DNA of 64,000 nucleotides from an uncultured bacterium (GTDB taxonomy: Bacteria > Bacillota_I > Bacilli_A > RFN20 > CAG-826): NCBI GenBank assembly GCA_949293175.1, contig CASFCI010000003.1, positions 78,899 through 142,898 on the forward strand, in the 5' to 3' direction. Under the pieces are notes generated by a model that worked only from the letters and a program-made list of their open reading frames with translations, did not search any database and had not been told where the DNA came from. Position numbers and translations under genes: made by a program. This document shows, one piece after another, positions 24,817-64,000 of this stretch. The stretch's first letter is position 1. The number at the start of each line of letters is the position of its first letter.

Positions 24817-24817
24817 C

Positions 24818-33793: not shown

Positions 33794-33797
33794 GAAC

Positions 33798-33875
33798 TCG
33801 ACAAAGGCAAACCTAGAGCGATCTAGGGGCGCAAAACTACAGGGCCTCTCCGAGGCAGCCAGGTGCCACTAATCC
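33798..33875 (+). ncRNA. candidate c-di-GMP-I (GEMM-like) riboswitch aptamer, copy 2
   Basis: aaaGGCAAACC followed by hairpin TAGA-GCGA-TCTA (GNRA loop). Then GGGGCGCAAAACTACAGGGCC, hairpin GGCCTC-tcc-GAGGC, and AGCCAGG. 18 of 19 identical to copy 1 over GGCGCAAAACTA(A/C)AGGGCC. It overlaps the tracked GTG start at 33863, which argues for the ATG at 33887. Confidence 0.5.
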
Positions 33876-33886
33876 AAAGCAAGACT

Positions 33887-36631: not shown

Positions 36632-37597
36632 ATGGGAAGCAAGAAGACATTGATATTGACCGCTGCGGTCAGCCTGCTGGCCACCTTGTCCATCTCGGTG
36701 GCCACCTACGCCTGGTTTTTGACCAGCTTCGGGGCCAATGGCGGCAAGACAATCAACCTGACCTCAGGCGTCAGCTCGGTCATGGTCACCGCCAAGGCCT
36801 ACTCGATGAACGCCGATGAGAACGGCGGTTTCAGCGCGAAGAACAGCATCTCCATCGACAAAGCCGGAAACGTCACCGCCGAGGAGCAGGCTACCGGCCC
36901 CACCATCAGCTCGAGTTCCCTATCCGTCTCGTTCAATCAGGTCCGGGATGCCTACGACTATCTGCCTCTATACGCAAACGAGGTGAGCCTAAACCGCGAG
37001 AAGCTGCCTCGGGCCTACGTCGAATTGGAGTACCGCCAGGACAATGTCGGAGGCTACGTGAAAGTCGACGTCGAGCCAGTTGTCAAGAATACCTCTATAG
37101 AATGGTCAAAATCCGGGGATGCGTCGACATTTGGCGCGTATCTTCGCAGCTTCACCTACCGCAACGACGAATCCGCCCCAACCAGCGAATCGATCAGACA
37201 AATGCTCGAGGATAGGACAGAAAACGGCGCAAATCCCGACTCCAGCGTCTGGACCTCGCTTTCCTCTACTGCCGACGTCTATTCGGGACAGCTGCACGTC
37301 AATCCGCTCAACCTATCGCAGAACGGCGAACTCTACTATTCCTGCGCGACCTTGCTCGAGATAACGATCGACCCGTTGCCGTTCCTTGATATGCTTATGG
37401 ACACCATGCAGTCCTTAGACCAAGCAACATCTGATACGGAGTCCACCGGCCAGGGAACATCTAGCGTCAAATTCGAGCTTTCGCTCAACTTCAAGCTCAA
37501 CATCAGCTACTCCTCCAGCCCGTTCCGGGAAGGGAATAACGAGCTGCCGGTGGCCGAGCTCAACCCAGGAAGCTTTCTAGAAGGGGGCAACGCATGA
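36632..37597 (+). CDS. secreted protein with SipW-cognate class signal peptide (TasA-like paralog)
   Basis: N-terminus MGSKKTLILTAAVSLLATLSISVATYAWFLTSFGANGG. 321 aa. Only a 6-nt gap from the upstream gene. Confidence 0.65.
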   Translation: MGSKKTLILTAAVSLLATLSISVATYAWFLTSFGANGGKTINLTSGVSSVMVTAKAYSMNADENGGFSAKNSISIDKAGNVTAEEQATGPTISSSSLSVSFNQVRDAYDYLPLYANEVSLNREKLPRAYVELEYRQDNVGGYVKVDVEPVVKNTSIEWSKSGDASTFGAYLRSFTYRNDESAPTSESIRQMLEDRTENGANPDSSVWTSLSSTADVYSGQLHVNPLNLSQNGELYYSCATLLEITIDPLPFLDMLMDTMQSLDQATSDTESTGQGTSSVKFELSLNFKLNISYSSSPFREGNNELPVAELNPGSFLEGGNA

Positions 37598-47097: not shown

Positions 47098-47964
47098 TTA
47101 AATGATTCCTAGTATTGAAAATAGTTCAAATAGATTGGTGCCCAAATTATCGTAAAGGTCGGGGAAAGTCGTGGCGAAGCCTTTGGCCCGCTCCGCGCCT
47201 TTCTTGATGTTTGGATAGTATAGTTCCATGAACTTGGCGCTGGATATCCTCTTCGCGTGGTGAGCTGCCTCAGACAAAGCTTTGCTCACCGCCGTATGCT
47301 TATCGGATACGCGTCTATTCGCTTTGAAGCCCTCCATCTCCTGCTCGTTATAAGCACTTTTGACATCGCAGACATGAAGCAGGAGGAAAAACTCGAAGCA
47401 GGGATTCGACAAAAACACGCGGTGCCCTTCGCCTTCGCACCTTTCCACGCATCCTGAAAGGAGCTGTTTGGGCCTAGATTTCTCATCACGGTCGAGGACC
47501 ACGCAGAAATATGTGCCTTCTGATTTCAAATCCGACAAGTACTTGCGGTAATCAAGATCTATTCCGGCCTGAAGCAAGTCCGCTTTGAGCTCTTTTGCTT
47601 TTGTTGGATCGACGCTACTAGGCTTCTTCAAATAAGAATCTATGAATTCATAACCATATTTATTCAAAATCCAGGCGACAGATTCATCAACCGGAAACGG
47701 CCCATTCTTTCTAGCATCAACCGCTTCTTCCAAAAGTTCGATGACGTGCTCTGGATCGCTATATCCATCGCCTCGTCGATGCCTGAGCGTCTCGATTTTG
47801 ATGACGCTATTATCCAAGCAGCCATTTAACGAGTTGAAGTAATCCACCTCGGTTTGGCTTCCTTCAACCGAAAGGAAAACAAGCTTCTTAAGCTGCCGTT
47901 TTTCCGACTCGTCTTTTCTTTCGAATGCCGATGATGTAAGACGAAACTTGCTTTTCACGGCCAT
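47098..47964 (-). CDS. RloB-like protein (AbiLii-like)
   Basis: KLVFLSVEGSQTEVDYFNSL matches the RloB N-terminal box (ILIVCEGEKTEPNYF). AT-rich. It starts 3 nt downstream of the ATPase gene. Confidence 0.6.
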   Translation of the reverse strand: MAVKSKFRLTSSAFERKDESEKRQLKKLVFLSVEGSQTEVDYFNSLNGCLDNSVIKIETLRHRRGDGYSDPEHVIELLEEAVDARKNGPFPVDESVAWILNKYGYEFIDSYLKKPSSVDPTKAKELKADLLQAGIDLDYRKYLSDLKSEGTYFCVVLDRDEKSRPKQLLSGCVERCEGEGHRVFLSNPCFEFFLLLHVCDVKSAYNEQEMEGFKANRRVSDKHTAVSKALSEAAHHAKRISSAKFMELYYPNIKKGAERAKGFATTFPDLYDNLGTNLFELFSILGII

Positions 47965-47967
47965 AGG

Positions 47968-49317
47968 TCAGTTAGTGTCCGCCTTTTCATCGGAAAGGAA
48001 TTTTGGTTTAAAGTTAGGGACCGCCCCGTATCTGCCGAGCAGGTATTCCTTCTCAATCTTCTTGTCGAAGCGCTCATTGAAGGCGTTAAGGGAATAGAGT
48101 TCGCTGCTGCAATCCTTTTTCCTATTGATGAACCATATTTCATCCTGCCTTAGGAAATCCAAATCCAGCAGATTCGTGTCGTGCGTAGTGGCGATCAGCT
48201 GCGATTTGACGCCTTTTGATATTTCGAAAAACCGATCTATGAATTCCTTCGTGGCCTCGGTGTGGAGGCTACGGTCCAATTCGTCTATGACAATGACCGA
48301 TTCTTCTGTAGCATCCCTAAAAATTGGTATCAACGAGAACAGCCTTTTGGTTCCGTCTGATTCATCGCCGAACTCAAAAAGATCTGATGAGTTCCCGTGG
48401 TTCGTCATGATCACATAGGCATTTATCTGGCCGCCTTCTTTAACGAATTCATACAAAGAGGAGTCAAGTTGGCATAAATACGACTTCCTCCCATTTAACG
48501 CGGAGAGTATATGGTCTATAGATTTCCCTAATTTTGAGGCGATTTTGCCGAAATCGACCGGTTTTCTAGATAAGGATTTTATCCCAGTATCGAAATACGA
48601 TAGGAGGTTCTCGACCTTTGTCTTATTGTCGCGATTCTCCAAAAGCTCCTCGATGCCCACGTATTTGACGTTGGGGAACAGCACGTAAAGACGCGTAAAC
48701 CATCCGAAGACATCGGCGAATGCTTGATAGGAATGGTTATCTGAAGGCGCCCTGAAGGCGATGTCGCTTAAGAAGAATCTCTGCTCCATCTTGTTGGATA
48801 AGAAGTCTTCTTTGTAAAGTTGGAATCTCATTTTCTCTTTAGGGCTGGAAAAAGAGAGGTCGGAGCGGATGCGGCAGACCCACGGGGCCGGATAGCTGCG
48901 CAGGAAGATGCACTTCTCATCATCCTGTTTGTCGATGTTGTATAGCCATTCCTCGACAATCGATTGCGATTGGTACGAAATGGCAAAGCCATAGGAATAG
49001 AAATGTCCGTTGGCGAATATATCGAACTGAAAAACGCCGGGCTTATCTTTGCAAGCGTCGTCTAGGCGAAAATACTTTTTGAAAACGCTTATCCTATCCA
49101 AGCCATATAACACTAACTGACTAGCAACGAAAATCGCCTTGACGAAATTGGATTTGCCGCTGGCGTTGGGCCCAAACAAAACAGCGCTTTTGAGAACCCT
49201 TTTCCCGTTGCACGAGACGACGTGGTCTGAATGGCGGACTATCTTGCTGGCCATCATATTGAATTCCGTCATGTCCTTGAATGAGGCAAAATTCTCAACA
49301 GCGAACCTAATTAGCAT
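47968..49317 (-). CDS. AAA_15/AAA_21-type ATP-binding protein (AbiLi-like)
   Basis: N-terminus MLIRFAVENFASFKD...AVLFGPNASGKSNFVKAI (P-loop) and a C-terminal IVIDELDRSLH Walker B/D-loop. 449 aa. Confidence 0.7.
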   Translation of the reverse strand: MLIRFAVENFASFKDMTEFNMMASKIVRHSDHVVSCNGKRVLKSAVLFGPNASGKSNFVKAIFVASQLVLYGLDRISVFKKYFRLDDACKDKPGVFQFDIFANGHFYSYGFAISYQSQSIVEEWLYNIDKQDDEKCIFLRSYPAPWVCRIRSDLSFSSPKEKMRFQLYKEDFLSNKMEQRFFLSDIAFRAPSDNHSYQAFADVFGWFTRLYVLFPNVKYVGIEELLENRDNKTKVENLLSYFDTGIKSLSRKPVDFGKIASKLGKSIDHILSALNGRKSYLCQLDSSLYEFVKEGGQINAYVIMTNHGNSSDLFEFGDESDGTKRLFSLIPIFRDATEESVIVIDELDRSLHTEATKEFIDRFFEISKGVKSQLIATTHDTNLLDLDFLRQDEIWFINRKKDCSSELYSLNAFNERFDKKIEKEYLLGRYGAVPNFKPKFLSDEKADTN

Positions 49318-50730: not shown

Positions 50731-51321
50731 ATGCACATCACCGTCAGCGAGCAGGAAAGGCGATACCTATCATCGGTCGACCCGGACATGAAGCGGGCCT
50801 GCCGGATCATCGGGCCGATCGACCGCGAGATCGGAAGGACCTTGTTCGAGGGGATCGCACTGCAGATAGTCGCGCAGCAGATATCCAACGCCGCCTTCGC
50901 CTCCATAAGGGCGAGGCTGGGCGATGGGCTGCTATCAGCCGACAACGTCCTTGCATTGGGCAAGGCGACGCTCCGGTTCGCCGGGCTAAGCGAGGCCAAG
51001 GCGAATTGCCTGCTGGATGTCGCCGATAGGTTCAACCAAGGCTATTTCCGCGACCTTCCGCTTCTAGACGACGAGGCGGCTAGGCAGAAGCTCGTCGCCA
51101 TCAAGGGGATCGGCAGCTGGACCGCCGACATGGTGCTCATATTCGCCTTGGGAAGGAAGGATGTCTTCACCATCAAGGACGCCGGGATAAGGATTGGCCT
51201 GAGGAAGCTATATGGCTTCAAGACCATATCCGAGGCCAGGGCGGGGAAGCTTAGGAAAAAGTATTCTCCCTGCGCCACCGCGGCCTGCCTATTGCTTTGG
51301 GAAGCCGCCAAATGGGAATAA
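50731..51321 (+). CDS. HhH-GPD DNA glycosylase (AlkA/3-methyladenine glycosylase II-like)
   Basis: IKGIGSWTADMVLIFALGRKDVFTIKDAGIRIGL is a helix-hairpin-helix/GPD motif with the catalytic Asp. Confidence 0.7.
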   Translation: MHITVSEQERRYLSSVDPDMKRACRIIGPIDREIGRTLFEGIALQIVAQQISNAAFASIRARLGDGLLSADNVLALGKATLRFAGLSEAKANCLLDVADRFNQGYFRDLPLLDDEAARQKLVAIKGIGSWTADMVLIFALGRKDVFTIKDAGIRIGLRKLYGFKTISEARAGKLRKKYSPCATAACLLLWEAAKWE

Positions 51322-51323
51322 AA

Positions 51324-54293
51324 TCACTTTTTTATAACGCCTATTTCTGAAAAGGATTTTTCAAATAGTCTCAATCCGTTATCTTTGCTTGATTTCTCCA
51401 CTAATTTGTCGTCCCAGAAGCGGATAACCTTGATGTCGTTTGCATATTGAAAGTTTCTTACAACATTAGAAACGTTATACATATAGGTATCCGAAACGAA
51501 AGTGCTCTTTCTTACTAATTGCGATTTTTGATTTCGCTTAGCCGGAAAAGTCATTGAATAAAACTCGTTAATCACGTTTGAGCGCAAAAAGCGATCTAAT
51601 AAAGGGGGGCATTCTTCGGCGATAAGACTTCTAATAGAAGGATAAACTTCTTTATCAACAACTGAGACGGCATGATAAGGGATAAGTTTTCCGTCAAATG
51701 GGTTGAAGTAAAGATGATTGAAGAAATCGATATCTATTATGCAACCGTGAATCGTTCCGTATCCGCCAAACGATTTTACCCATTCAGATATTTTCTTTTG
51801 CTTTTCAAAATATGGCCCAAAATAAAGAGATATGCTCCTTTGAATTATTTCAAGTTTATCAAAAAAATATGTCAGAGGATGGCTTGGCACATTGCGAATC
51901 GCCCCACCGTTAAGTAATCTCAGTTCGCCTTTTTGGTTCGTCATCATGAAAAGGTGAACGCCAGACCGCTTTATCAAGTATAGTTTTTGATAATCCTGAA
52001 AGAAATCCATAGATATGGACATTCCTTGGCAAAAAGTCAGATAGTCCTCCCGACTTATCTCGTATATTCCGTCAGAATATGTATCAAACCAATTAGATTT
52101 CTTGTTTAAATAGAAGTACTTAAATTGTACTTTGCGTGGCCCGTATCCAACTTGATTGTCGGCAATTACTCTAGATTGCCCATTATCAAAATAAAACTGG
52201 CGATGATCGTGGCCGTGTACATAGACAACTCCAGGATCCATATCTTTCTTCTCGATAAAATCGAAAGTTGGAATATGCGTAACGACAACAAGGTTTCTAC
52301 CTCTCTCTGCAATGGCGACTTTTTTGTACAAATCATGAAAAGCTTGAATTGCGTTAGAATGATCATTATTCCCAAACAAAGATCCATATCCTCCAAATAT
52401 GACAAGCTTTGAACCCCTTGTCATGCCGCGCAATTCTTCCGTGCTAAGAGAAATCAGTTTCGTGGTTGGAATATTTTGAATTAATCCATTTTCAGAAATG
52501 TAATAAAGTTCATTCTCAACAAGATAAATACCGTTTTTTTCTGCCTCCGCTCGATGTTTTTCGATAGATTGAGAAATTGAAACTATAGGCTTGGACATAA
52601 GCAATTCATGATTGCCTAAAACAAGGAAAGTTTTTCCTTTGCACTTATATTTTCCCAATGCCTTTAAGAATATTTTGAAATCATCGAATGGGGCGGCAAT
52701 GTCTCCAGCAATAAGATTAATGTCATAGCTAGAACTTGAAGAAAGAGATGATGCAGTCTCGTAAGCGACTCTCGTCTTATCTCCAATGCTTTTGCATTTC
52801 TTGTCAAAAAACTTATTTGTAATATGTATATCGCTGATATATCCAACGCATATTTCTTCGTTTGAATAATCAAATTTTTCGGAAGGAGGTAATTCTTCGT
52901 GAACTATATTATTTGGCAATTTCTCGTTTTCCTCTGAGTCTTTGCTACGATTAAGGCTTTCTTCCAAAACCTCGCTTGGTTCAAACGACAAACCAAGGGC
53001 TATAGAAGAGCTCGTTGTCATCTCCGCCCCTTCTAAGTTTAGGGATTTGACATCGGTAAGCCTTTCCAAACCGTCACATAAAACCAAATCTGCTTTTGAC
53101 AAATCGCCTTTGAGAAAGTGAGCAAAATCACAGAAATAAGAAAATTTAAACTGGTGTCTATATACTTCTTCCCCCGATGAGTTAATCCAGCACAAAGTTA
53201 CAACAAAGTTTTCCCCATTGTATTCTTTCTCTACCTTTCGTTTTAGTTTGAGAGAAAGCAATGGCATGATGGTAGAGTTATCAGTCTCGCATTTTGATAT
53301 ATCCGAAGAAAGAATTGGAAGTTTTGAAAGATCTAGACCTTTCAAATTATATTTTAAAAATTTTGACAAACATTCGAAATCGAAAAAGTCAAAATTTATG
53401 AAAATATTTGTGTTTTTCCATATTATTCTGCCGAAGAATCTATATAATCCAGTTTTACGATCGAGATCTATATTCCGATCTTCAGCCGCTTTGGATAGTA
53501 TAGCTTTAATAAATCTACGGTACTTGTTTTTCAAATATTCCGATAACTTCAACTCTTTGATTAAATTTAATAATTCTGAAGAATATCTCGCTCCAAACAG
53601 GTATGCCAGCTCTTCGAATGCAATTCCTTTTTCTCCACATTTAGCTAAGCTATTAGCACGGCAACACTGAATAAGCGGAATGGCCAACCCGTCACCATAT
53701 TTCTCGTAAAGCATGCCTAGAGGCGAAAAAACATTGCCAATGCTGAAATATGAGTGAATGATTTCAAGTAGCCTTTTTTCGCTTGGAACGTCATGCGGCA
53801 AATTTTCATACCAGCTTTGCGCTTTCTTAGGTATGTAATAAGGGCTTGACTTATCAGCCGATAAAATGGAATCAAGACTTATGCTATCTATATCGTAATC
53901 AATATAGGAATCAAAATTCATTTTTCGGATATCAGCCTTGCATTTTTTAATTTGTGCGGGTTGAATTGTCATTCCGAAATAACACGCATCTTCGTAAATG
54001 TTCCCTTTAAAATATTTTAAAAAAGCGTTAAATTCCGTGAAAGTAGATATCTTAAATTGGACATCTAGCGGTGAAGAAAAATCATAATTCTCAAAGAAAA
54101 ACTTTCCTTTGAGCACATCATATCCCATCCTTCCAACAAAAATATCGTTTTTCCAAGATGAGTTCTGTATAAATTGTGCTACTTCGTGCCGAGAAGCGTA
54201 ATCCAAATCTTCAAAATGATTATTTAATCCAGTAATCATTTTTATATATTTGGATAATTTGCAAATGCGTTGCCGACGGCCAAGTCCTAACAT
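51324..54293 (-). CDS. 989-aa orphan protein with central calcineurin-like metallophosphoesterase domain and pentapeptide-repeat-like region (candidate defense/nuclease)
   Basis: AT-rich. The metallophosphoesterase motifs are GYISDIHIT, IAGDIAAPFDDF, LGNHELL, VVVTHIP and VHGHDH. An upstream block resembles pentapeptide repeats (KADLVLCDGLERLTDVKSLNLEGAEM). The N- and C-terminal regions are unassignable. Confidence 0.55.
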   Translation of the reverse strand: MLGLGRRQRICKLSKYIKMITGLNNHFEDLDYASRHEVAQFIQNSSWKNDIFVGRMGYDVLKGKFFFENYDFSSPLDVQFKISTFTEFNAFLKYFKGNIYEDACYFGMTIQPAQIKKCKADIRKMNFDSYIDYDIDSISLDSILSADKSSPYYIPKKAQSWYENLPHDVPSEKRLLEIIHSYFSIGNVFSPLGMLYEKYGDGLAIPLIQCCRANSLAKCGEKGIAFEELAYLFGARYSSELLNLIKELKLSEYLKNKYRRFIKAILSKAAEDRNIDLDRKTGLYRFFGRIIWKNTNIFINFDFFDFECLSKFLKYNLKGLDLSKLPILSSDISKCETDNSTIMPLLSLKLKRKVEKEYNGENFVVTLCWINSSGEEVYRHQFKFSYFCDFAHFLKGDLSKADLVLCDGLERLTDVKSLNLEGAEMTTSSSIALGLSFEPSEVLEESLNRSKDSEENEKLPNNIVHEELPPSEKFDYSNEEICVGYISDIHITNKFFDKKCKSIGDKTRVAYETASSLSSSSSYDINLIAGDIAAPFDDFKIFLKALGKYKCKGKTFLVLGNHELLMSKPIVSISQSIEKHRAEAEKNGIYLVENELYYISENGLIQNIPTTKLISLSTEELRGMTRGSKLVIFGGYGSLFGNNDHSNAIQAFHDLYKKVAIAERGRNLVVVTHIPTFDFIEKKDMDPGVVYVHGHDHRQFYFDNGQSRVIADNQVGYGPRKVQFKYFYLNKKSNWFDTYSDGIYEISREDYLTFCQGMSISMDFFQDYQKLYLIKRSGVHLFMMTNQKGELRLLNGGAIRNVPSHPLTYFFDKLEIIQRSISLYFGPYFEKQKKISEWVKSFGGYGTIHGCIIDIDFFNHLYFNPFDGKLIPYHAVSVVDKEVYPSIRSLIAEECPPLLDRFLRSNVINEFYSMTFPAKRNQKSQLVRKSTFVSDTYMYNVSNVVRNFQYANDIKVIRFWDDKLVEKSSKDNGLRLFEKSFSEIGVIKK

Positions 54294-54321
54294 ATTGAGA
54301 TTTTAGCAAACCATATATAAT

Positions 54322-54356
54322 CTTTAAACTCAAAACCCTCCTTGGAAGGAGGGGCA
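54322..54356 (-). terminator. rho-independent terminator of the aldo/keto reductase gene
   Basis: CCCTCCTTggAAGGAGGG hairpin with a T-run on the minus strand. Confidence 0.6.
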
Positions 54357-54375
54357 AAGATGGCCTTAGCTTTTT

Positions 54376-55149
54376 CTAATACAATAAGTCGAACACCTCG
54401 TCGGCGCTTAGGTCGAGGTCGGCGGGGATGTTCTCCCGCAGATGCTCTTCCGAGGTCGCCTTGCATATCGGGGTGGTCCCGATCTGGGCGAGGAAGCTCA
54501 TGGCTAAGGTGGTGAGGGGAACGCCGTGCTCCTTGGCCATCTTCTGCAGGCCCTCGTCGCTTAGCAGCTTCCCATGACCCAAGGGGCTATAGGCCTCGAT
54601 CTTGATCCCCTTTCCCTTGCAGAACTCTAGCAGGTCGCTATCGACGTTGTGGGCGTGGCAGCAGATCTGGTTCACGTAGGGCTTGATCGAGCAATGGGCG
54701 AGGATGTTCTCTAGATCGGCAATCGAGAAGTTCGAGACGCCGATGTGGGCGACCTTTCCCTCCCTCACCGCCTCTTCCATGGCCTTATAGACCTCGAGGT
54801 TCTCCTGGTGGAAATCGCCGCGGTTGGGGTCGTACATAATCGCCCAGGGCGCCGGGGCGTGGATAAGCAATAGGTCGATGTAGGGGGTGTCTAGCTTCCT
54901 AAGCGACTCCTCGATGCTCTTCTTGGCCTCGTCGTAGCTCTTTATCTCGGCGGCGACTTTGGTCGATAGGAAGACGCTTCCCCTATCGAGGCCCTTGATG
55001 GCCTTCCCCAGTGCCTCCTCGTTATCGTAGGCCTGGGCGCAGTCGAAAAGGCGGTACCCCAGCTTATAGGCGGTGGGGATGGCGGAGAGGACGTCCTCGT
55101 CCTTCATCATCCAAGTCCCCAGTCCGAATCTTGGCAGATCCATATTCAC
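54376..55149 (-). CDS. aldo/keto reductase
   Basis: LGTWMM, the catalytic tetrad region and the C-terminal IPKS-like motif, as in 2,5-diketo-D-gluconate reductase-type AKRs. Confidence 0.75.
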   Translation of the reverse strand: MNMDLPRFGLGTWMMKDEDVLSAIPTAYKLGYRLFDCAQAYDNEEALGKAIKGLDRGSVFLSTKVAAEIKSYDEAKKSIEESLRKLDTPYIDLLLIHAPAPWAIMYDPNRGDFHQENLEVYKAMEEAVREGKVAHIGVSNFSIADLENILAHCSIKPYVNQICCHAHNVDSDLLEFCKGKGIKIEAYSPLGHGKLLSDEGLQKMAKEHGVPLTTLAMSFLAQIGTTPICKATSEEHLRENIPADLDLSADEVFDLLY

Positions 55150-56339
55150 TTGCCCTCCAGCAGCTTAAGCTCGGGGCTAAGTCTAAATGCGGAAGCAAGC
55201 GATATCAAGACGCATTCGTCCTCGCCGCGGAAGACGGTGGTCTGCGGGCTGCGGCGGAACAGCCGGTAGAGGATGCCATCCCCCTTGGCTTTCTCCTCCT
55301 CGATGAGCTTCGCCATGGCGGAGTAGGCCGCCTCCTTGGGGCGAAGCAATTCGTCGGTCGGGGTCTTGGCCTTCGACAGCAGGTGCTCCAGCGGGAGCAG
55401 CAGCAATTGCTCCGGGGTTGGCCGGTGCAGCCCCTTGGCGTCGGCGGCGTCCATCAGCCACTTGACCGCCTTCCGCATGTCATCCTCCTCCATGGAGAGG
55501 ACGGACCGCTTGAAGCTCTCGGCGGCCCGCTTGACGTCCTTGCTCAAAAACGAGTAATCGAAGCCGATGTAGTCGCCGTATTCCTTCTTCGCGTCGGCGT
55601 AGCCCTGGTTCATGTTGGCTATTATGACCTCGGGGGTGAAGTCCATTATCGAGCCAAGCGACTTCGAGGGGGTTATGAGCTTGACGTTGGGCAGCCTAAG
55701 CAGCTCGGAGTGCTGCGGGGTGAACGAGAGCATGTTCATGTCGACGCAGACTATCTCGTCGGCCCCCATCGAGATGGCGTAGTCGATCGGGACGTTGTTC
55801 TTGTAGAACCCGTCGATGTACATGCTGCCAGCGACGGTCTCGATCGGGAAGATCGGCACGCAGGCGCTTGAGGCGTGCAGGAAGGGGAGGATGTCCTCCT
55901 CCCTGGCCTTGTTCAGCTCGACCCGGGTTTCCTTTAGCCCGGGGAAGGAGACCGTGACGATGCCAAGCCTCACCTTCGATTCCTTGATCCGCTTGGGGTC
56001 GATGTATTTGGCGCACAGCTGCTTGAACGGGGTGATGTCGGCCCCGCGCGACTTGACGTAGGACAAAAGGAAGGACAGCGACCCGGCGATGTCGAAGCTG
56101 GTTATGGCGTCCTTGTTGAAGTTCATCCCGTCCTTCATGACCTTGTCCGGGGTGATCTCGAGCCAGAGGGTGCGCAGCTTCTCGTAGTCGCCGGTGCATA
56201 GCAAGGCCCCGTTTAGCGCGCCAATAGAGGTCCCGGTGATGATGTCGAACCGCTCGCCTTTCTCCAGCAGGCACTTCACCGCGCCGACCTGATAGGCGCC
56301 AAGGCTCCCGCCTCCGGCTAGGACCAGCGCCTTGCTCAT
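55146..56339 (-). CDS. patatin-like phospholipase
   Basis: LVLAGGGSLGAYQVGAV (oxyanion GGGxxG) and GTSIGALNGAL (GxSxG nucleophile). 397 aa. Confidence 0.75.
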   Translation of the reverse strand: MSKALVLAGGGSLGAYQVGAVKCLLEKGERFDIITGTSIGALNGALLCTGDYEKLRTLWLEITPDKVMKDGMNFNKDAITSFDIAGSLSFLLSYVKSRGADITPFKQLCAKYIDPKRIKESKVRLGIVTVSFPGLKETRVELNKAREEDILPFLHASSACVPIFPIETVAGSMYIDGFYKNNVPIDYAISMGADEIVCVDMNMLSFTPQHSELLRLPNVKLITPSKSLGSIMDFTPEVIIANMNQGYADAKKEYGDYIGFDYSFLSKDVKRAAESFKRSVLSMEEDDMRKAVKWLMDAADAKGLHRPTPEQLLLLPLEHLLSKAKTPTDELLRPKEAAYSAMAKLIEEEKAKGDGILYRLFRRSPQTTVFRGEDECVLISLASAFRLSPELKLLEGK

Positions 56340-57184
56340 ATCTTGAACCCCCGGGACTGCTGCAGCTTGTTGAAGAAGATGGCGGCGGTGATGGAGATGT
56401 TGCTCTTCTTCCGCTCCTCTATCTCGTCCCTAATCCAGCGCTGCCCCGCTTCCTTTATCTTCGATAATGTCATCTGGGATAGCACCTTCTGCCCGAACTC
56501 GCGGCCATAGTCATAGGATATATCGAGCATCCGGTTGATGTTCCTCAGGTCGAAGGAATAGGTCTTGATCGAGTTGCCGCAGCGGGTCCCGACGTCGATG
56601 TCGATGACCACCGTGTCGGAATTGACGATCTCCGCCGGGGGCAGGTAGCGCGGGTAGTTGTGCAGTATGAGCAATAGGTCGACGTGCTTGATGAGGAAGG
56701 GATAGACCGGGATGTTGTCGGTCGCCCCGCCGTCGAGGTAGAACTTCTTCCCGTACCGGCGGTATACCCCATTGACGAAGGGGAAGGTCAAGGTGATGTT
56801 CATCGCCTCGTAAAGCTCGTCCTTGGGTTTGGAGGAATCGAGGTAGAAGTAATGCGTCGAGAGGGTGTTGAGGCAGGTCCCGGTCACATATAGCGGGATG
56901 TCGACCCGACCGCCCTTTATCAAGGAATCAATGACCTGGTCGACCAGCTTGTTCTTAAGATTGAGCCGAAGGTTGGATATCGAGGTGATGTTGGTGTGGC
57001 GGTATATCTGCTCGCCATAATCGAGCCGGTCGGCGCTTAGCGCCAAGCCAGTCAAAGCGCCGGAAGAGGAGCAGGAGAGCAGCTTTATGTCGGAGCGGTT
57101 CAAAAACGGCAGCATCCCCCTGAGGAACCCAAGCTGGGCCGCGCCCCGGGCGAACCCGCCGCCGAATACGATGCCGATGTCCAT
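56336..57184 (-). CDS. patatin-like phospholipase (second copy)
   Basis: IVFGGGFARGAAQLG and CSSSGALTG (GxSxG). A 4-nt overlap with the downstream patatin gene. Confidence 0.7.
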   Translation of the reverse strand: MDIGIVFGGGFARGAAQLGFLRGMLPFLNRSDIKLLSCSSSGALTGLALSADRLDYGEQIYRHTNITSISNLRLNLKNKLVDQVIDSLIKGGRVDIPLYVTGTCLNTLSTHYFYLDSSKPKDELYEAMNITLTFPFVNGVYRRYGKKFYLDGGATDNIPVYPFLIKHVDLLLILHNYPRYLPPAEIVNSDTVVIDIDVGTRCGNSIKTYSFDLRNINRMLDISYDYGREFGQKVLSQMTLSKIKEAGQRWIRDEIEERKKSNISITAAIFFNKLQQSRGFKI

Positions 57185-57188
57185 TGCC

Positions 57189-58052
57189 CTACCCCTTGGT
57201 GGCGAAGCGGCTCTTCATCCTTAGCGAGGAGAATATGCCGGCGTTGATTGCGCAAAGCAGGTTGAGCGCGAAGCAGACGTAGATGATTATGCAGCTGTTC
57301 TCGTCTATAGACAGCCCGCATTGGGGGATGAAGGTCATGATGAATAAAACCGCGGAGCAGACCAATAGGATCAAGACGTAGAAGAAGGTCGAGAATACGT
57401 TGAAGTTCTTTATGGCGATGTAGCGGGCGAGGCCGAAGAGGAAAAGCAGGCTCAGGAAAACCGGGGCGATGTATCCGAAGCAAAGCGAATACGAGCTCAT
57501 TCCGAAAAGCGGGAAATACGGCGGGTATCCACCAGCCCCGATGGCACTCACCTGCGTCCCTTCCGGGGACATCCTGACCCAGCTTGGATAGGAGAACATC
57601 AGGATCAGCATGAAGGCCAAGCCAAAGCCGAATGCCTTAAGGAAAAGCAAGCGGTTGCTGTTTTGCCTCGGCGCGATGGCCTCGTTTATCAAGAACAAGG
57701 CCCCGAAAAGCGAAAGGAAGGCCCATGGGGATAGGTGGTAGTTATGGCGCGGCCCCAGGAAGACCAAGGCGATGTCGATTATGCAGATAAGGGCGAAGAG
57801 GTTGGCGATGATGATGCTGATGAGCTGCCTGGTCGAGATCTCGGCCCAGCGGAGCATGAACCGCTTCTCATCAAGCGGGGCAGGCTTGGAAAAAGGCGTG
57901 CCGCAATAAGGGCACTTGTCCTCCACGCCTTTGGTTATGAAGCCGCATTTGTGACAATACATTGACATTCGAATTTTACTACAAGAAAAACCGCCTGCAA
58001 CAGGCGGTTTTACATTTTTCCTAACGTCAACCGATATGGGCGTTTTTGGCAA
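57189..58052 (-). CDS. zinc-ribbon-containing membrane protein
   Basis: The N-terminus carries CHKCGF...CPYCGTPF (C4 ribbon), followed by six TM helices. Confidence 0.45.
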   Translation of the reverse strand: MPKTPISVDVRKNVKPPVAGGFSCSKIRMSMYCHKCGFITKGVEDKCPYCGTPFSKPAPLDEKRFMLRWAEISTRQLISIIIANLFALICIIDIALVFLGPRHNYHLSPWAFLSLFGALFLINEAIAPRQNSNRLLFLKAFGFGLAFMLILMFSYPSWVRMSPEGTQVSAIGAGGYPPYFPLFGMSSYSLCFGYIAPVFLSLLFLFGLARYIAIKNFNVFSTFFYVLILLVCSAVLFIMTFIPQCGLSIDENSCIIIYVCFALNLLCAINAGIFSSLRMKSRFATKG

Positions 58053-58665
58053 CCCAATCGACCATGTGGGTCATGGCCCAGAAGGTGTAGATGCCGAGGG
58101 TGATTATCGACAGTATCCACCAGACTATCCAGTGCCCGAGCAAGCCGAGGCCGGATCCGCCGAAGCTGACCTTCTCCCCGCCGATGACCATGCGCTCGAC
58201 GACATAGGTGATGACCAGGTTGAGGCCAACCGGGAACAGCAAGCCGAGGGTGAAGACGGTGATTAGATCCATGGCGAGCAGGTGGACGAAGAGCATGAAC
58301 GCCCCGCCTTCCCAGCTGCCTTTGCCGGTGCCGCCCTCGATGCTGATGTGGGAAGTGACCCACTGAATGACCTTTTTCGGCAAGAAGAACATGTAGATGC
58401 CGAGGGTGACGATGCAAAGAAGCAGCCACACGATCCATTTGCCGATTAGCTGTCCACCCGTGCCGTCGAAGCTAAGGGTGCGTCCATCGACTTTGGTTTT
58501 GCCCAAGATGTAGCGGATCTGAGCGCATAGGACCCATGGATATCCGATTCCAAGGGTGATGATGGTGAGCAGCGACCAAAGGATGCAGTGTCCTAGCAAT
58601 CCAAGGCCGGTGCCGGTGTAGCCTCCCTTTTCCTTGACGGGGGCTGCGTTGACAACGTCTGCCAT
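58027..58665 (-). CDS. DUF898/YjgN-like membrane protein
   Basis: Two internal repeats of G(L/T)GLGLLGHxI(L/V)W(S/W)xL(T/S)IITLGIY...W, characteristic of DUF898. Confidence 0.55.
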   Translation of the reverse strand: MADVVNAAPVKEKGGYTGTGLGLLGHCILWSLLTIITLGIGYPWVLCAQIRYILGKTKVDGRTLSFDGTGGQLIGKWIVWLLLCIVTLGIYMFFLPKKVIQWVTSHISIEGGTGKGSWEGGAFMLFVHLLAMDLITVFTLGLLFPVGLNLVITYVVERMVIGGEKVSFGGSGLGLLGHWIVWWILSIITLGIYTFWAMTHMVDWVAKNAHIG

Positions 58666-58890
58666 TTTGTCCTTCCTTTCGGGCTATTGCCCTTTTGACT
58701 TCATTAGAATAAGGCCCGAAATTGATAATCTCAACATTTTTTTCGTCACTTGAAAGACGCTTACAATTCTTTCCATTAGGAAAGGGTGAACGTAAAATGA
58801 ACACCTGTGCATTTATCTGAATTGGCTTTTCAAATCAGCAAAATAGGACAGCCATTTGTTTAAGGTGCGTCTACCGATTAAAATATTGAT

Positions 58891-59379
58891 TTGAGTTATA
58901 TGACTTTGACTATAGGAATGGGCGAAGATGAGCGCGGGAAAAGCCGCGGATCGTTTTCTTCTCCTTTTGGGAATATTGCCATCGAAAGCGAAGATGGGTT
59001 CATAACGGCCGTCTACTTCGACGATGAAGAGTACGGCGGAACCAGCAAGGCCATAGACAAAGCCAAGGCTTGGCTAGAGGAATACTTCCTCGGACGTAAT
59101 CCGAAGATGGATATCGGATTGATGCTCAAAGGGACGGAGTTCCAGCTGAGGGTATGGGAAGAGCTTATGAGCATCCCATATGGCACGACCATAACCTATG
59201 GGGAATTGGCCAGGCGGATCGGCTCCCATCCCCATCCGGTCGGGCAGGCAATGAAGAGGAACAGGATAATGCTATTGCTCCCTTGCCACCGCGTTGTGGC
59301 TAGCAATGGCTTAGGCGGGTATGCCGGAAGGGAATACAATAAGCTTAGGCTGCTGCAGCTCGAAGGATCGCTTAGATAG
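58891..59379 (+). CDS. ogt: methylated-DNA--protein-cysteine methyltransferase
   Basis: GTEFQLRVWEELMSIPYGTTITYGELA and the active-site PCHRVV. Confidence 0.85.
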   Translation: MSYMTLTIGMGEDERGKSRGSFSSPFGNIAIESEDGFITAVYFDDEEYGGTSKAIDKAKAWLEEYFLGRNPKMDIGLMLKGTEFQLRVWEELMSIPYGTTITYGELARRIGSHPHPVGQAMKRNRIMLLLPCHRVVASNGLGGYAGREYNKLRLLQLEGSLR

Positions 59380-59433
59380 CAAATAATAAAATGCTTTGCT
59401 TTATTATTAGGCTATATATTTTATTTGATATCG

Positions 59434-60315
59434 TTAAAGACGATTCTTTTTCGCCGATTGGGTGATGGTTGAGTGATAGAAATAGTTGATGATTATAGGC
59501 TTGCCGGTCGCGTTCCTTAGGAATGGCTCCTCGTCTATTACATACTCGAACCCGTTTTCCTTAGCATAGCCATCGACCGCCTTATCAAGCTCCTTCCAAT
59601 AGGTCAGGTCTCCTTTTGAATAGATGCGCGAATAAAGCTCATCCAGCTCAGGGCGATGGGAATGGATGTAGTCGATTATCGTCTTTTTGAAGCCGCCGCG
59701 TAGGTTAAGGTTCTCTAGCCAGATATAGTCACAGCAGTCCTTGATTCTATTTATTATGCTTAGGACATCGGTTATGCCTGGGAATATAGGCGAGATGAAG
59801 CAGGTGGTCCTTATGCCGGCTTCATGGCATTTCCTCATCGCCTCAATCCTTCTTTCGATGCTTGGGGTACGTTCCATGTCGCTTTTGAAGGATTCGTCTA
59901 GCGTATTGATAGACCAGGATATCAGCGGATCGGGGAAGGTCTTTATCAAATCTATGTCGCGGGTCACTAGGTCGGACTTGATGGTGATTATTAGATGTAT
60001 CTTGGCTCCCTGCATCTGGGCGAGAAACGCCCTTGTCCTTTCGTATTTTATCTCCTGCGGTATATACCCGTCGGTCACCGAGCCAACTATGAAAGTCGAG
60101 CCATCATAGCGATTGGGATGAGTGATTGGCGGCCACATCTTCACGTCGATGAACTCGCCCCATGGCTCAGTGTGGCCAGTGAACCGCTTCATGAAGCAGG
60201 CGTAGCAGTATTTGCAGGCGTGGCTGCAGCCGACATAGGGGTTGACCGAGTATCCGGCGATGGGAAGGTTGGACTTGGTCAAAACGCTTTTGACTTGTAT
60301 TTGCTTGATGATCAT
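59434..60315 (-). CDS. radical-SAM DNA repair photolyase family protein (SplB-like)
   Basis: NPYVGCSHACKYCYA (CxxxCxxC) and the overall COG1533-like layout. 293 aa. Confidence 0.65.
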   Translation of the reverse strand: MIIKQIQVKSVLTKSNLPIAGYSVNPYVGCSHACKYCYACFMKRFTGHTEPWGEFIDVKMWPPITHPNRYDGSTFIVGSVTDGYIPQEIKYERTRAFLAQMQGAKIHLIITIKSDLVTRDIDLIKTFPDPLISWSINTLDESFKSDMERTPSIERRIEAMRKCHEAGIRTTCFISPIFPGITDVLSIINRIKDCCDYIWLENLNLRGGFKKTIIDYIHSHRPELDELYSRIYSKGDLTYWKELDKAVDGYAKENGFEYVIDEEPFLRNATGKPIIINYFYHSTITQSAKKNRL

Positions 60316-60605
60316 AGATTGTCCTCCGCCTCCTCTAGGTTATGCAGGATCCTCTGCAGGCAATTCTCAAAATCGGCAATCTCGTCCTCGGAGAAGCCGC
60401 GGTAGTAGATTGAGCAGACTTCTTCGCTGACGGAGTCATATTCGCCCTTGAGCATTCTGGCCTTGTCGGTTAGCTGCACGAGCAATATGCGGTGGTCATC
60501 CTCGGATTGCCTTAAATCGACCAGCCCTTCGTCCTTCATATGTTTGACCATGGCAGAAACACTGTTTTGACTAATCTCATAAATTTGCTTTCGTTGACTA
60601 AGCAT
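60312..60605 (-). CDS. MarR-family winged-helix regulator, N-terminally short (possibly truncated)
   Basis: ISQNSVSAMVKHMKDEGLVDLRQSEDDHRILLVQLTDKARML is the MarR recognition helix plus wing. Only 97 aa, and the upstream sequence is AT-rich non-coding. ATGA-coupled to the splB-like gene. Confidence 0.5.
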   Translation of the reverse strand: MLSQRKQIYEISQNSVSAMVKHMKDEGLVDLRQSEDDHRILLVQLTDKARMLKGEYDSVSEEVCSIYYRGFSEDEIADFENCLQRILHNLEEAEDNL

Positions 60606-60806
60606 TATTTACAAATATTTTAATATCGCCCCACGTATAATGCATAGTTTCTATCTTGGAAACATCTAGTTGAATACCACCTATCCATCAGTCATTGAGA
60701 AAAGAAATATAGCAAAACTTTTTAATATAAGAAGTGGACCCTAGATGATTATCAAAACGTATTAGGAAGAAAGTATTAAACATATGCTGTTCTTCTATTA
60801 GCACAA

Positions 60807-62495
60807 TCAATCTGATTGAATTTCAAAGCCCAACATCTCATTAATCTCGGACTCGTTCTTTTCGAATTCTTTGCGGCAAAGAAGCCTTGGAGCCGCGCGA
60901 TCACCGTCATCAAATTTGTCAAAGTCAATAAGATTATATCTAGGTAAATTCACACCACACTTAGCTATTCTGTTTAAACAATCAATAGAAAACACGAAGC
61001 TTTGAGGATAACGATCAATATTGGCAATTCTTTCAAAAATAGATTTAAACGAACAAATTAAATTAGACTCGTTCATATCCAAATTTGGAAAATCGAAAAT
61101 AACTGGCATATTAATCGTTTCGTCTTTTGTATCTAGAAAAGCCAAAAACTTGGAAATCGCAAATCTAGGAACTTCACTGCCGGAAAGTTTGAAATTTTTA
61201 TTTATTGCTATTTTTTCTACTGGGATATCATCCAAATGTATGTTGGTCTCCCTTGCTAATTTAATAAAGTTGGCCTTGTATTTAGAATCAGCTTCCTTTT
61301 TAAGACTTGTATATTTGGCCATCATTTTGGACTGTTCCTTCAGCCTTCGCTTTATCCACTCAATTTTCTCAATTATTGGCGAATAATCGCGTTGGGCCTC
61401 TAGAAGTTGCTGATTCCATACAATCACCGCCCTAGAAATATCAATGTTTTTTCGCTGCGCATCAATTTTTATAATTTCGCTTGCAAGTTTTTCCGATTTT
61501 TCAATTTTAAGATCGAGCGCGCGCTTAGAATCGAGCAGGCTTGAGTTTAAATCGGACAACTCTCTTGAAACATCACTATTACAAATAGAAACCTGTAATG
61601 CCCTTTCTAAAAATCCGGTTATATCATTATTGCAAAAAGGACATTTGATATCTTCCTCATGTAGAAGCCTATTAGAAAAAGCTATGTTGTCTTCTAATGT
61701 TTTCTTCAAAAGAGCAATTTGACGATTTAATGTTTCTATCCGCTTCCTAATGCTATAAATTTCTAAGTTAAGCGAACTCATTCTTTTATATTTAGCTATA
61801 TCAGAATCAAGTTCTTTATCAAAATTAACAATTGCCGCGCTTTTATTTTCGTCCAGTTTTCTTGTTAAATAATCAATTTCGCTTTTTTTGCTTTCAGATT
61901 CTTTCTCAAAATTATCGAGTTCGATATTTAGTTTCGTTTTTTCTTCCACTAAATTAGTATAATTCGGATCCAAAACGCCTATATGATAGTAAAAAGTTTC
62001 GTAAATATCGTTTTTAGAATACATCCCCAAATCCGTGAAGAATTCTTTGTCACTCAGAAAACTGATTTGGGGAAGATAGTATGGCAAAAGGTATATTGAA
62101 GGAATCGCCGTAGAATAATTGTCCGATTCTTTGTCCTTAATTTTTATTGTAAATCCTAATAATTCATAAAGCTTATCAGAATATCCTCGCCTCTGCGTAG
62201 AGAAGAAAAACGATTTGTTTTCGTGTTGTATAAGATATGAGTTATTGTGACGAATTACTATGATTGGGGTATCGTTCTTAAGTATTGTCAGTTTTGTGTA
62301 TATATTCTTCAAATCCCATTTGTCGCTAAAAGCGACTTTCGCTCCAAAGGCATATGCCATAAACATCGATAAAGATGTTTTTCCAACGCTGTTTTGTAAC
62401 GAAGTAATAATATTAATCCCCTTATCAAAAATAACCTTTCTTGCAGATTGCTCGCTCTTGTCGTAAATCAATATCTCTTTAAACAAAATGCTCAT
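60807..62495 (-). CDS. SMC/Rad50-like ATPase with central CxxC zinc-hook (LmuB-like, Lamassu)
   Basis: N-terminal P-loop (GINIITSLQNSVGKTS), long coiled-coil, central CPFCNND hook and C-terminal MPVIFDFPNLDMNESN (Walker B/D-loop). The ATG at 62495 forms an ATGA overlap with the upstream gene (the tracked start at 62513 is TTG). AT-rich. Confidence 0.6.
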   Translation of the reverse strand: MSILFKEILIYDKSEQSARKVIFDKGINIITSLQNSVGKTSLSMFMAYAFGAKVAFSDKWDLKNIYTKLTILKNDTPIIVIRHNNSYLIQHENKSFFFSTQRRGYSDKLYELLGFTIKIKDKESDNYSTAIPSIYLLPYYLPQISFLSDKEFFTDLGMYSKNDIYETFYYHIGVLDPNYTNLVEEKTKLNIELDNFEKESESKKSEIDYLTRKLDENKSAAIVNFDKELDSDIAKYKRMSSLNLEIYSIRKRIETLNRQIALLKKTLEDNIAFSNRLLHEEDIKCPFCNNDITGFLERALQVSICNSDVSRELSDLNSSLLDSKRALDLKIEKSEKLASEIIKIDAQRKNIDISRAVIVWNQQLLEAQRDYSPIIEKIEWIKRRLKEQSKMMAKYTSLKKEADSKYKANFIKLARETNIHLDDIPVEKIAINKNFKLSGSEVPRFAISKFLAFLDTKDETINMPVIFDFPNLDMNESNLICSFKSIFERIANIDRYPQSFVFSIDCLNRIAKCGVNLPRYNLIDFDKFDDGDRAAPRLLCRKEFEKNESEINEMLGFEIQSD

Positions 62496-63550
62496 ATTTC
62501 TTCCCCAGACCAATCATAAGCCACTACGATTACTATAAGTTGCACTATTGGCTTTGGATAATAAGATAAAATATGTAGGCATTTTTCGGTTGTCCTGCGC
62601 ACCGCATCTTCTGTTGTTGAGCATTCCGATGCGATTGTTTTATATGATTCTCTAACCGTTTTAAGAGCCTTTGGGTAAACTTCGTCTGTTAAATTGCGCC
62701 TGCAAGACACAAATTCGCTATAGTAACTTTCTATATCGATGCATTCTCTCGGTGTAAATATTCTATGGGCATGGTTTAGAATCTCGCGTTTTGTCAAGCC
62801 ACACCTTTGTTTTGCGTCATTAATCAATTTTTTAATATCAATAGTCTTAATTCCCTTTTTATCGATGGCTTCATCTTCGTCAACTTCACTAGTCTTGAAT
62901 TTATGAATTCTTTTTTTCTCAAAAATCAATTTTAATGCCGACAGAATCGTTCTTGGATTTATAGAATCACAGTCGTCACCAACACAATGATAAATTACAT
63001 CATTTGTTTTGCCGGTGAGCGTTTCTATATACCTGCTTTCCGTGGAAGAAAACGGTAATGACGATCTTATGTAAACTAATTTGCCAACATAAGTATCAAG
63101 GTTTGGCATTTCCTTATTTTTACTTTTTAGAAATTCGGAAACATTCTCCTTGACCCTTTGCAATTCGTTTTCGTCGAATTTATCGCAAAAATAAAATTTA
63201 TCAAGGCATTCTGTTCTCTTACCCTTAAAATTAGCGTTGCAGATTATGTTCAATGTTTTGGCTTTTGAATTTGCGTATATATCACTCAAAACTATTTTTC
63301 CGAGAGCGTGGTCTTCAAATAGCGCATTTTTATCGTACAATCCGCCACCTTTAGTTTTTACTTGATATACTTCCAACTCTTCGTTTTGCTCATGAAAATT
63401 GTAATAAATAGCGAAATCTTCTATGGTTTCCAGCACAACTATTGCATCACAATCAATATTTGAGAGTAAATAATCAATAGCGACAGCCATTTGATAATCA
63501 AATCCACGGCTTGCATCAGTACCAGATTGTTCCCTAATTTTGATTTTCAT
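62492..63550 (-). CDS. Cap4/DUF4297-like nuclease-domain protein (LmuA-like, Lamassu effector)
   Basis: N-terminal SRGFDYQMAVAIDYLLS hallmark, then D...VVLE...YQVKTK (PD-(D/E)xK-like). 352 aa, AT-rich, ATGA-coupled to the ATPase. Confidence 0.5.
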   Translation of the reverse strand: MKIKIREQSGTDASRGFDYQMAVAIDYLLSNIDCDAIVVLETIEDFAIYYNFHEQNEELEVYQVKTKGGGLYDKNALFEDHALGKIVLSDIYANSKAKTLNIICNANFKGKRTECLDKFYFCDKFDENELQRVKENVSEFLKSKNKEMPNLDTYVGKLVYIRSSLPFSSTESRYIETLTGKTNDVIYHCVGDDCDSINPRTILSALKLIFEKKRIHKFKTSEVDEDEAIDKKGIKTIDIKKLINDAKQRCGLTKREILNHAHRIFTPRECIDIESYYSEFVSCRRNLTDEVYPKALKTVRESYKTIASECSTTEDAVRRTTEKCLHILSYYPKPIVQLIVIVVAYDWSGEEI

Positions 63551-63677
63551 TATTTAATATTATATGACTCTGTTAAAAATCATTTATTAATCTTTTTTGA
63601 TTAGCTTCCTTCGGTTCCGTTCAATATCATGCCTTATATATTGAAATAACGCGATTCAATTTAATACTCTGTTCAAA

Positions 63678-63968
63678 ATGTTGCTCTTTGTGCCTAGTAG
63701 AGAACGTGAACTATCCAGTGACAAAGTTCTCCTCTATCGATCCCTGATATCCATTATTGAGGCTACTGACGGTGATATAGGCGAAGCAAAAGGAATCATT
63801 GTATTCATTAGACCAGCACCCGCCTATTTCAGTGAAAATTCCATATCTACTTTTGGCTTCACTGGATTGACTTATATCTTTATTGCTTTGTCATATCCGT
63901 TTATCAGACCAGATCCTAAGACTCAATTCCACACCCGACCTAGCCAGTTTCGATGGGTATCCATTTGA
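63678..63968 (+). CDS. hypothetical protein in AT-rich island (weak)
   Basis: 96-aa ORF of unknown function. It continues the AT-rich segment to the window edge. Confidence 0.2.
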   Translation: MLLFVPSRERELSSDKVLLYRSLISIIEATDGDIGEAKGIIVFIRPAPAYFSENSISTFGFTGLTYIFIALSYPFIRPDPKTQFHTRPSQFRWVSI

Positions 63969-64000
63969 TCTTGGCGAGATATTCGCTTAGCCCGATTCAA

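Follow-up and report, generated by a model that had tools for sequence, protein, structure and literature searches.

The gene pair

We have analysed a stretch of 64,000 nucleotides, referred to here as the window, from an uncultured bacterium of the RFN20 lineage CAG-826 (Bacillota_I, Bacilli_A; GenBank assembly GCA_949293175.1, contig CASFCI010000003.1, positions 78,899 to 142,898). We have focussed on two long open reading frames (ORFs) that occupy 60807..63550 of the window on the minus strand and that appear to encode the nuclease (LmuA) and the ATPase (LmuB) of a Lamassu anti-phage system. An initial annotation, made from the sequence alone, had placed both ORFs at these positions and had read them as a type I Lamassu of the LmuA(Cap4)-LmuB kind, which our results bear out: the PADLOC LmuA and LmuB models match both proteins (7e-19 and 3.7e-58, respectively) and no lmuC was found. 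The coordinates of the genes and of their motifs are collected in Table 1. LmuA starts with MKIKIREQSGTDASRGFDYQMAVAIDYLL, and the coupling proposed for the two genes is real, as the lmuA stop and the lmuB start share the tetranucleotide ATGA (in the context ...GAAGAAATATGAGC...). For lmuB a longer alternative with a TTG start at 62513 was also listed; it is unsupported because the methionine aligned with the ATG at 62495 is the start in all 22 aligned homologues (mostly MSI, some with short N-terminal extensions). From this ATG the protein is 562 amino acids (aa) long and not 563, as first given. With ca. 80 homologues of LmuB (E down to 1e-156) and 17 of LmuA (E down to 1e-99) chance can be dismissed as the origin of these ORFs. 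The genes are coupled in translation, and the pair travels as a unit from one unrelated genomic context to another. A scan for promoters and terminators gave no signal over the shuffled expectation.

Table 1. Position of the lmuAB genes, their motifs and the surrounding island in the window.
Feature	Position	Strand	Description
lmuA	62492..63550	-	352 aa, ATG start; N-terminal Cap4/DUF4297 PD-(D/E)xK nuclease domain (ca. aa 1-166); all-helical C-terminal domain (ca. aa 171-346)
LmuA motif RGFDYQ (R15-G-F-D18-Y-Q20)	63491..63508	-	Translated at exact coordinates
LmuA motif ETIEDFA (E41/E44-D45)	63410..63430	-	Translated at exact coordinates
LmuA motif QVKTK (Q63-V-K65-T-K67)	63350..63364	-	Translated at exact coordinates
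lmuB	60807..62495	-	Short SMC/Rad50-like ATPase of 562 aa; its start (ATG, 62495) overlaps the stop codon of lmuA
LmuB Walker A/P-loop NSVGKTS (K39)	62373..62393	-	K39 invariant in 129/129 representatives
LmuB putative zinc hook CPFC (C285, C288), then NN	61632..61643	-	Both Cys invariant in 129/129; predicted coiled-coil apex
LmuB ABC signature LSGSE (437-441)	61173..61187	-	Translation confirmed
LmuB deviant Walker B and D-loop-like acidic residue, MPVIFD468-F469-PNLD473	61077..61109	-	D468 invariant
Low-GC defence island, part within the window	60606..64000	.	GC ca. 0.33-0.36; left border at a MarR-like ORF

LmuA, a Cap4-type nuclease

The proposed relationship of the first protein to PF14130 (Cap4_nuclease/DUF4297) is clear, with a match (1.1e-11, 45.8 bits) above the Pfam cutoff of 26.2 bits. 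Six PADLOC LmuA models also match, the best of them (PDLC03849, 7.1e-19) over aa 2-293. The RGFDYQ motif and the D/E/QxK constellation of PD-(D/E)xK type that had been described for this protein were all found by translation, and the nuclease motifs, including D18, E44/D45 and Q63-x-K65, are invariant across 16-19 homologues. The YQVKTK block aligns with an annotated LmuA from Bacillus cereus, and the lysine equivalent to K65 (K59 in BcLmuA of Bacillus cellulasensis, K57 in VcLmuA of Vibrio cholerae) is the one mutated to obtain nuclease-dead complexes (bioRxiv 10.1101/2025.06.23.660979).

The AlphaFold2 model of LmuA (predicted local distance difference test, pLDDT, 83) consists of an alpha/beta N-terminal domain and an all-helical C-terminal domain, and its sole significant Foldseek matches in the PDB were the nuclease domains of Cap4 from the cyclic-oligonucleotide-based antiphage signalling system (CBASS; best 6vm5/6wam). 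Neither single-sequence phmmer nor a family profile found a match among PDB sequences. When the LmuA family profile was compared by hhalign with the B. cereus LmuA, annotated by the Prokaryotic Genome Annotation Pipeline (PGAP), the alignment (probability 92%, E 5.5e-7, 264 columns) extended into the C-terminal domain.

LmuB, a short Rad50-like ATPase

The second protein matches ten PADLOC LmuB models (best PDLC00254, 3.7e-58, residues 1-506). In Pfam it has no SMC_N or AAA match, nor any other family, and in NCBIfam no LmuA or LmuB model matched the pair, the one match, below threshold, being that of a coiled coil to an archaeal SMC-related protein. A single-sequence phmmer search of the PDB was likewise negative. 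With a family profile built from 23 aligned homologues, the sole real match among PDB sequences was 9ux7/9ux8, "Lamassu protein LmuB" (562 aa), at 6.3e-17, end to end and with the hook cysteines in register. The AlphaFold model (pLDDT 75) shows a split ATP-binding cassette (ABC) head and a helical hairpin with a CxxC at its tip, and the first Foldseek match was again this protein (9ux7_A, from the type I LmuAB-DNA complex; E 1.5e-17, TM-score 0.53), followed by type II LmuB structures (9hqu, 9uxh, 9nyg) and then by Rad50/SMC heads.

A P-loop, an uninterrupted coiled coil with a CPFCNN hook and a C-terminal D-loop/Walker B had been proposed for this protein. The motifs are all present; the coiled coil is not uninterrupted, since the helices of the model (177-216, 229-279 and 293-416) leave a break at 217-228, about where the solved B. 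cellulasensis protein (BcLmuB) has a kink (210-225; bioRxiv 10.1101/2025.06.23.660979). The CPFC lies in the non-helical tip between the second and third helices, aligned with 285-CQYC-288 of BcLmuB, and is by this alignment a putative zinc hook. Among short Lamassu the presence of such a hook varies. Of the ABC signature, the alignment of 23 sequences keeps L437, G439, S440 and E441 without exception, and position 438 is S, or G in two sequences. The most conserved stretch of the whole protein, which includes the Q-loop, is aa 116-175 (window ca. 61971-62150; IKIKDK...STAxPSxYLLPY..Q).

The Walker B variant and the wider LmuB family

LmuB does not have the catalytic glutamate of the Walker B motif, D468 being followed by F469. 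When 1.84 billion cluster representatives were searched exhaustively by profile, 717 related LmuB clusters were found, 44 of them at E <= 1e-30, with nearly all 550-585 aa long. Residue conservation was counted over an alignment of 129 full-length representatives. K39, Q143, C285, C288, D468 and Q498 are invariant in this set. The residue after the Walker B aspartate is S in 96 representatives, T in 15, N in 7, A in 5, F in 5 and E in a single one. In this superfamily the glutamate is generally missing. The five with D-F are exactly the subfamily to which our LmuB belongs (16-24% identical to the remaining representatives), and since F was found in this subfamily alone it can be taken as its hallmark. 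The acidic residue five positions past the aspartate (D473) is kept as E or D in 114 of the 129, the subfamily having one residue fewer ahead of it. The pattern given for the Walker B of short Lamassu is hhhhD[Q/S/T/E] (PMC12663957). BcLmuB, which our profile alignment places as D-S, and its V. cholerae counterpart (VcLmuB) are both described as having naturally deviant Walker B motifs and yet hydrolyse ATP moderately, and the K37A mutation of BcLmuB abolishes its ATPase activity (bioRxiv 10.1101/2025.06.23.660979).

Absence of lmuC and assignment to type I

Type I Lamassu are made up of two genes, lmuA and lmuB, and type II systems carry an additional small lmuC (bioRxiv 10.1101/2025.06.23.660979). 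The group of short Lamassu that lacks LmuC has been called "clade S", and its LmuB proteins average ca. 600 aa (PMC12663957). The small LmuC gene between or beside lmuA and lmuB that characterizes type II was not found here. Nothing can lie between the two genes because they overlap. Beyond 63.6 kb, where a small lmuC-like ORF had been envisaged, the minus strand of the last 450 bp of the window, upstream of lmuA (63551..64000), has stops in all three frames and no ORF, and in a related strain (L016) the next gene upstream of lmuA, ca. 0.9 kb away, codes for a 423-aa NOV_C protein. Among the small neighbouring proteins at homologous loci there was no PADLOC LmuC match, and an all-against-all BLAST of the neighbours at nine loci gave no conserved third gene. 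The size of LmuB (562 aa, with coiled-coil helices at 177-279 and 293-416) is that of the short form.

We are therefore highly confident that the pair is a type I Lamassu. Our confidence in the full mechanistic picture presented below is somewhat lower because the LmuA C-terminal domain has no match to a solved LmuA and because of the Walker B variant. Taken as a whole, it seems to us very likely that the pair is an anti-phage Lamassu of the short type I, with two genes and no LmuC, and that it belongs to a divergent subfamily, present so far mainly in metagenome-assembled genomes (MAGs) of gut Clostridia.

Comparison with known systems

The closest characterized system is LmuAB of B. cellulasensis NIO-1130 (PDB 9ux7/9ux8; bioRxiv 10.1101/2025.06.23.660979), which also consists of lmuA and lmuB without lmuC. 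Both LmuA proteins combine a Cap4 nuclease domain, with a QVK-type catalytic lysine, and a helical C-terminal domain (predicted for ours). Both LmuB proteins are 562 aa long, with a CxxC at 285-288 and a Walker B without glutamate (the Walker A lysine is K39 here and K37 in BcLmuB), and BcLmuB is the best match of our protein by sequence profile as well as by fold. However, the Walker B is D-F here and D-S in BcLmuB, and the hook is CPFC instead of CQYC. Besides, identity is very low, the match of LmuB being detectable by profile only (6e-17) and LmuA having no match to a PDB sequence, and the host genome has ca. 60% GC and the pair has its relatives in MAGs of gut Clostridia, not in Bacillus. 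A second relative is the PGAP-annotated lmuA/lmuB pair of a B. cereus HD2.4 plasmid (NZ_CP085507.1), with the same gene order and similar sizes (355 and 564 aa). The LmuB proteins are 28% identical by BLASTP (E 1e-40), with CPFCNN opposite CPYCNN, but the Walker B is VIFDFP here and LVIDSP there, and the pairwise similarity of the LmuA proteins is barely detectable (E 0.005).

The type II Lamassu/DdmABC systems (LmuACB of V. cholerae and Salmonella; 9hqu, 9uxh, 9nyg) are alike in the fold class of LmuB and in the logic of a Cap4-type effector, and the mechanism proposed for them, of sequestration, release and tetramerisation, is the same (bioRxiv 10.1101/2025.06.23.660979; bioRxiv 10.1101/2025.03.14.643221). 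They differ in that the LmuC subunit is required, in their longer LmuB chains (571-653 aa) and in their lower rank in the fold comparison (E 1e-7 to 1e-11). In V. cholerae, LmuB has no zinc hook (PMC12663957). As for Rad50/SbcC (Mre11-Rad50/SbcCD), the ABC head, the antiparallel coiled coil and the CxxC zinc hook are held in common, whereas the far longer coiled coils, the canonical D-E Walker B, the obligate Mre11/SbcD phosphoesterase partner and the housekeeping context of those proteins were not found here.

The type of system, its architecture and its likely mechanism have thus already been described, and the pair is a divergent member of Lamassu in which, judging from the sequence, the subfamily-specific D-F of the Walker B is the sole departure from known type I systems. 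This D-F adds to the published D[Q/S/T/E] range and could help to dissect the role of ATP hydrolysis in Lamassu. With this pair, Lamassu that lack LmuC but bear a hook are also extended to gut Clostridia, the identity of its LmuB to the Bacillus prototypes being only 16-28%. There is a practical side for annotation as well. As neither Pfam nor NCBIfam has a family for this LmuB subfamily, and it goes without a functional name, generic pipelines will label it hypothetical, yet PADLOC recognizes it.

Proposed mechanism and alternatives

The mechanism that we propose is derived by homology with the solved LmuAB of B. cellulasensis and the type II complexes (bioRxiv 10.1101/2025.06.23.660979; PMC12663957; bioRxiv 10.1101/2025.03.14.643221). 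In the solved systems an LmuB dimer, linked via coiled coil and hook, holds one LmuA monomer at its C-terminal domain; LmuA is released in response to double-stranded DNA ends, with ATP modulating the process, and the LmuA tetramer, whose nuclease sites are active, then brings about abortive infection (bioRxiv 10.1101/2025.06.23.660979; bioRxiv 10.1101/2025.03.14.643221). By analogy, two LmuB protomers would dimerise via the hook and the coiled coil, and this dimer would grip one LmuA monomer at its C-terminal domain, keeping the nuclease inactive. Contact of the ATPase heads with free double-stranded DNA ends (e.g., from phage replication) would release LmuA, and the freed protein would form a tetramer, the active non-specific DNase, that would kill the infected cell ahead of the phage progeny. 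ATP binding via K39 of LmuB is an expected requirement, and hydrolysis is probably slow, given that the Walker B glutamate is replaced. The residue classes that such a mechanism needs (Walker A lysine, Q-loop, signature, hook cysteines and the nuclease D/E...QxK) are all conserved.

Several observations weigh against this interpretation. The identity of the pair to characterized type I proteins is low: LmuB has 28% with the B. cereus protein and 16-24% with the other representatives of the superfamily, and the relation of LmuA is seen by profile methods only. Foldseek with the LmuA model returned Cap4 and no solved LmuA chain, so that the assignment of the C-terminal domain depends on the hhalign alignment and the PADLOC coverage. 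The conserved stretch of LmuB at aa 116-175 was modelled at a pLDDT of only ca. 35; it may become ordered only once the complex has formed or nucleotide has bound. The phenylalanine after the Walker B aspartate falls outside the published hhhhD[Q/S/T/E] and LmuB has no H-loop histidine, because of which ATP hydrolysis may differ from that of the systems studied.

There are several possible alternatives to a typical Lamassu. One would be that this LmuB subfamily does not hydrolyse ATP at all, and that ATP binding alone, or a different trigger, gates the release of LmuA. We regard this as unlikely; if true, it would represent a mechanistic variant of type I Lamassu, so far confined to anaerobic gut Firmicutes. 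More broadly, the pair could be a degenerate or differently working derivative of Lamassu, either because LmuB binds ATP without being able to hydrolyse it and acts as a nucleotide-gated or structural sensor, or because it is a decaying remnant. Every member of the subfamily has the D-F, which within the superfamily is rare (5/129) and lies outside the published pattern, and the H-loop histidine is missing, all of which would fit a hydrolysis-dead protein. However, glutamate at this position is found in 1/129 representatives and D-S in 96/129, BcLmuB and VcLmuB hydrolyse ATP moderately in spite of their deviant motifs, and the acidic residue at +5 is conserved (D473; E/D in 114/129). As to decay, neither gene is disrupted in either of the two strains, and even homologues of only 37% identity retain the residues of the Walker A, Q-loop, signature and hook unchanged, a pattern that argues for function. 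We consider such a derivative rather improbable.

Very little speaks for a housekeeping or repair ATPase of the SbcC/Rad50 type that lies by chance beside a nuclease, a reading that the initial annotation had kept in view. The fold of LmuB does resemble Rad50/SMC heads with a CxxC hook, and Lamassu have been proposed to descend from SbcCD (PMC12663957). But the partner is a Cap4 nuclease and no SbcD/Mre11 phosphoesterase is present, the coiled coil of the 562-aa LmuB is far shorter, its Walker B is not D-E, and the family profile finds LmuB 9ux7 only in the PDB (6.3e-17). In the Foldseek comparison the E-values of LmuB structures are better than those of Rad50 by at least 6 orders of magnitude, the PADLOC LmuB match is at 3.7e-58, and the pair lies on a low-GC island that varies with strain and context and has defence genes as neighbours. 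It is equally hard to sustain that LmuA is a CBASS-type Cap4 effector, a nuclease activated by cyclic oligonucleotides, as the name of its Pfam family and its best solved matches (6vm5/6wam) might suggest, for it is the nuclease domain alone that matches (ca. 200-250 aligned columns, TM-score ca. 0.3), the C-terminal half forms a bundle made up of helices only and has no SAVED/CARF profile match, neither the window nor L016 has a CD-NTase next to the pair, and the partner with which LmuA is conserved is in every case the LmuB ATPase.

Relatives and distribution

Beyond near-identical copies, the closest relatives of the pair are 44-48% (LmuB) and 43-49% (LmuA) identical. In a collection of 5.8 billion proteins the LmuB subfamily has a functional name from no source, one relative being labelled "hypothetical protein". 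The closest relatives of LmuA have no functional name either, and among those of LmuB none has a Pfam domain. A scan of GTDB representative genomes retrieved relatives from gut Clostridia MAGs (Christensenellaceae, Faecalimonas and Faecousia), 44-61% identical over the best aligned segment and 44-47% when nearly full-length. At all nine loci inspected the pair is kept, with the Cap4_nuclease gene directly upstream of the LmuB homologue, and the neighbourhood is different in each: for example, an integrase and a relaxase (L002/L010), Abi genes (L004) or capsule genes (L005). With such unrelated neighbourhoods, the pair behaves as a mobile defence module.

A scan of IMG/VR gave no close relative of the pair, so there is no sign of it being phage-borne. 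Along different lines, a phage contig from human faeces (MT836216.1, positions 8648-10096) codes for a protein distantly similar to LmuB, with 24% identity across 84% of the query, and IMG/VR contained one weak relative, a hint that phages carry some of the hook-bearing LmuB relatives.

The low-GC island and the related strain

The AT-rich segment that had been described as continuing past the edge of the window probably does so. GC is 0.325-0.356 over 61-64 kb compared with ca. 0.60 for the window (0.349 for lmuA and 0.335 for lmuB, against 0.594 for bases 1-33000), and in L016, which is 97.7% identical over the shared region, the low-GC island runs at least 10 kb further. Both lmuA and lmuB are intact in the two strains, with 9 nucleotide differences each. 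The island (60606-64000) is 99.38% identical to that of L016 and the adjoining core flank (54388-60605) 96.77%; this higher identity suggests, from sequence comparison, that the island has a more recent shared ancestry than the surrounding chromosome. Repeats in the window were short matches at chance level, with no att-like flanks, and there is no tRNA near the island.

The MarR-like ORF at the island border (97 aa, 60312-60605, minus strand) covers only the C-terminal half of the MarR/HTH_27 profiles and the in-frame sequence upstream of it is riddled with stops; it may have been truncated on insertion of the island. Divergent from lmuA, on the plus strand, there is a 96-aa ORF (63678-63968) for which contig L017 has a gene call and whose conservation in L016 is 99%. 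It has no Pfam match and no counterpart beside other lmuAB pairs, and is probably not a gene. Further into the island, past what corresponds to the right edge of the window, L016 (positions 1-9077) carries genes for RelB, for a 631-aa PDC-S56 homologue (1.7e-91) and for the 423-aa protein mentioned above (NOV_C/PDC-S36-like), together with a MazG-like protein and a Schlafen-group-3 helicase (AbiO/Nhi-like), and a cytosine methyltransferase with an NgoFVII-like restriction enzyme.

Other features of the window

Another low-GC patch (47098-49317, minus strand) contains a second defence system of the window, an AbiL pair. Its AbiLi ATPase has 449 aa (PADLOC 1.4e-81, Pfam AAA_21) and its AbiLii/RloB protein 288 aa (PF13707, 1.9e-21). 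A further low-GC segment of 3.07 kb (GC ca. 0.36; 51321-54388) is missing from the otherwise colinear L016, and is thus a strain-variable insertion. Its single ORF (51324-54293, minus strand) codes for a protein of 989 aa, of which aa 485-698 form a calcineurin-like phosphoesterase domain. PADLOC gave no match to it, and it is possibly an uncharacterised defence gene.

Two cyclic di-GMP-I riboswitches were found on the plus strand, at 24817-24896 (63.3 bits) and 33796-33870 (52.6 bits), both above the Rfam gathering threshold. The latter leads straight into an ORF of 920 aa (33863-36625), followed by one of 321 aa (36632-37597), in a patch of lower GC; neither of these ORFs has a Pfam or PADLOC match. 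Between low-GC patches, in a region of normal GC, there are also two adjacent genes for patatin-like phospholipases (397 and 282 aa; 55146-57184, minus strand).

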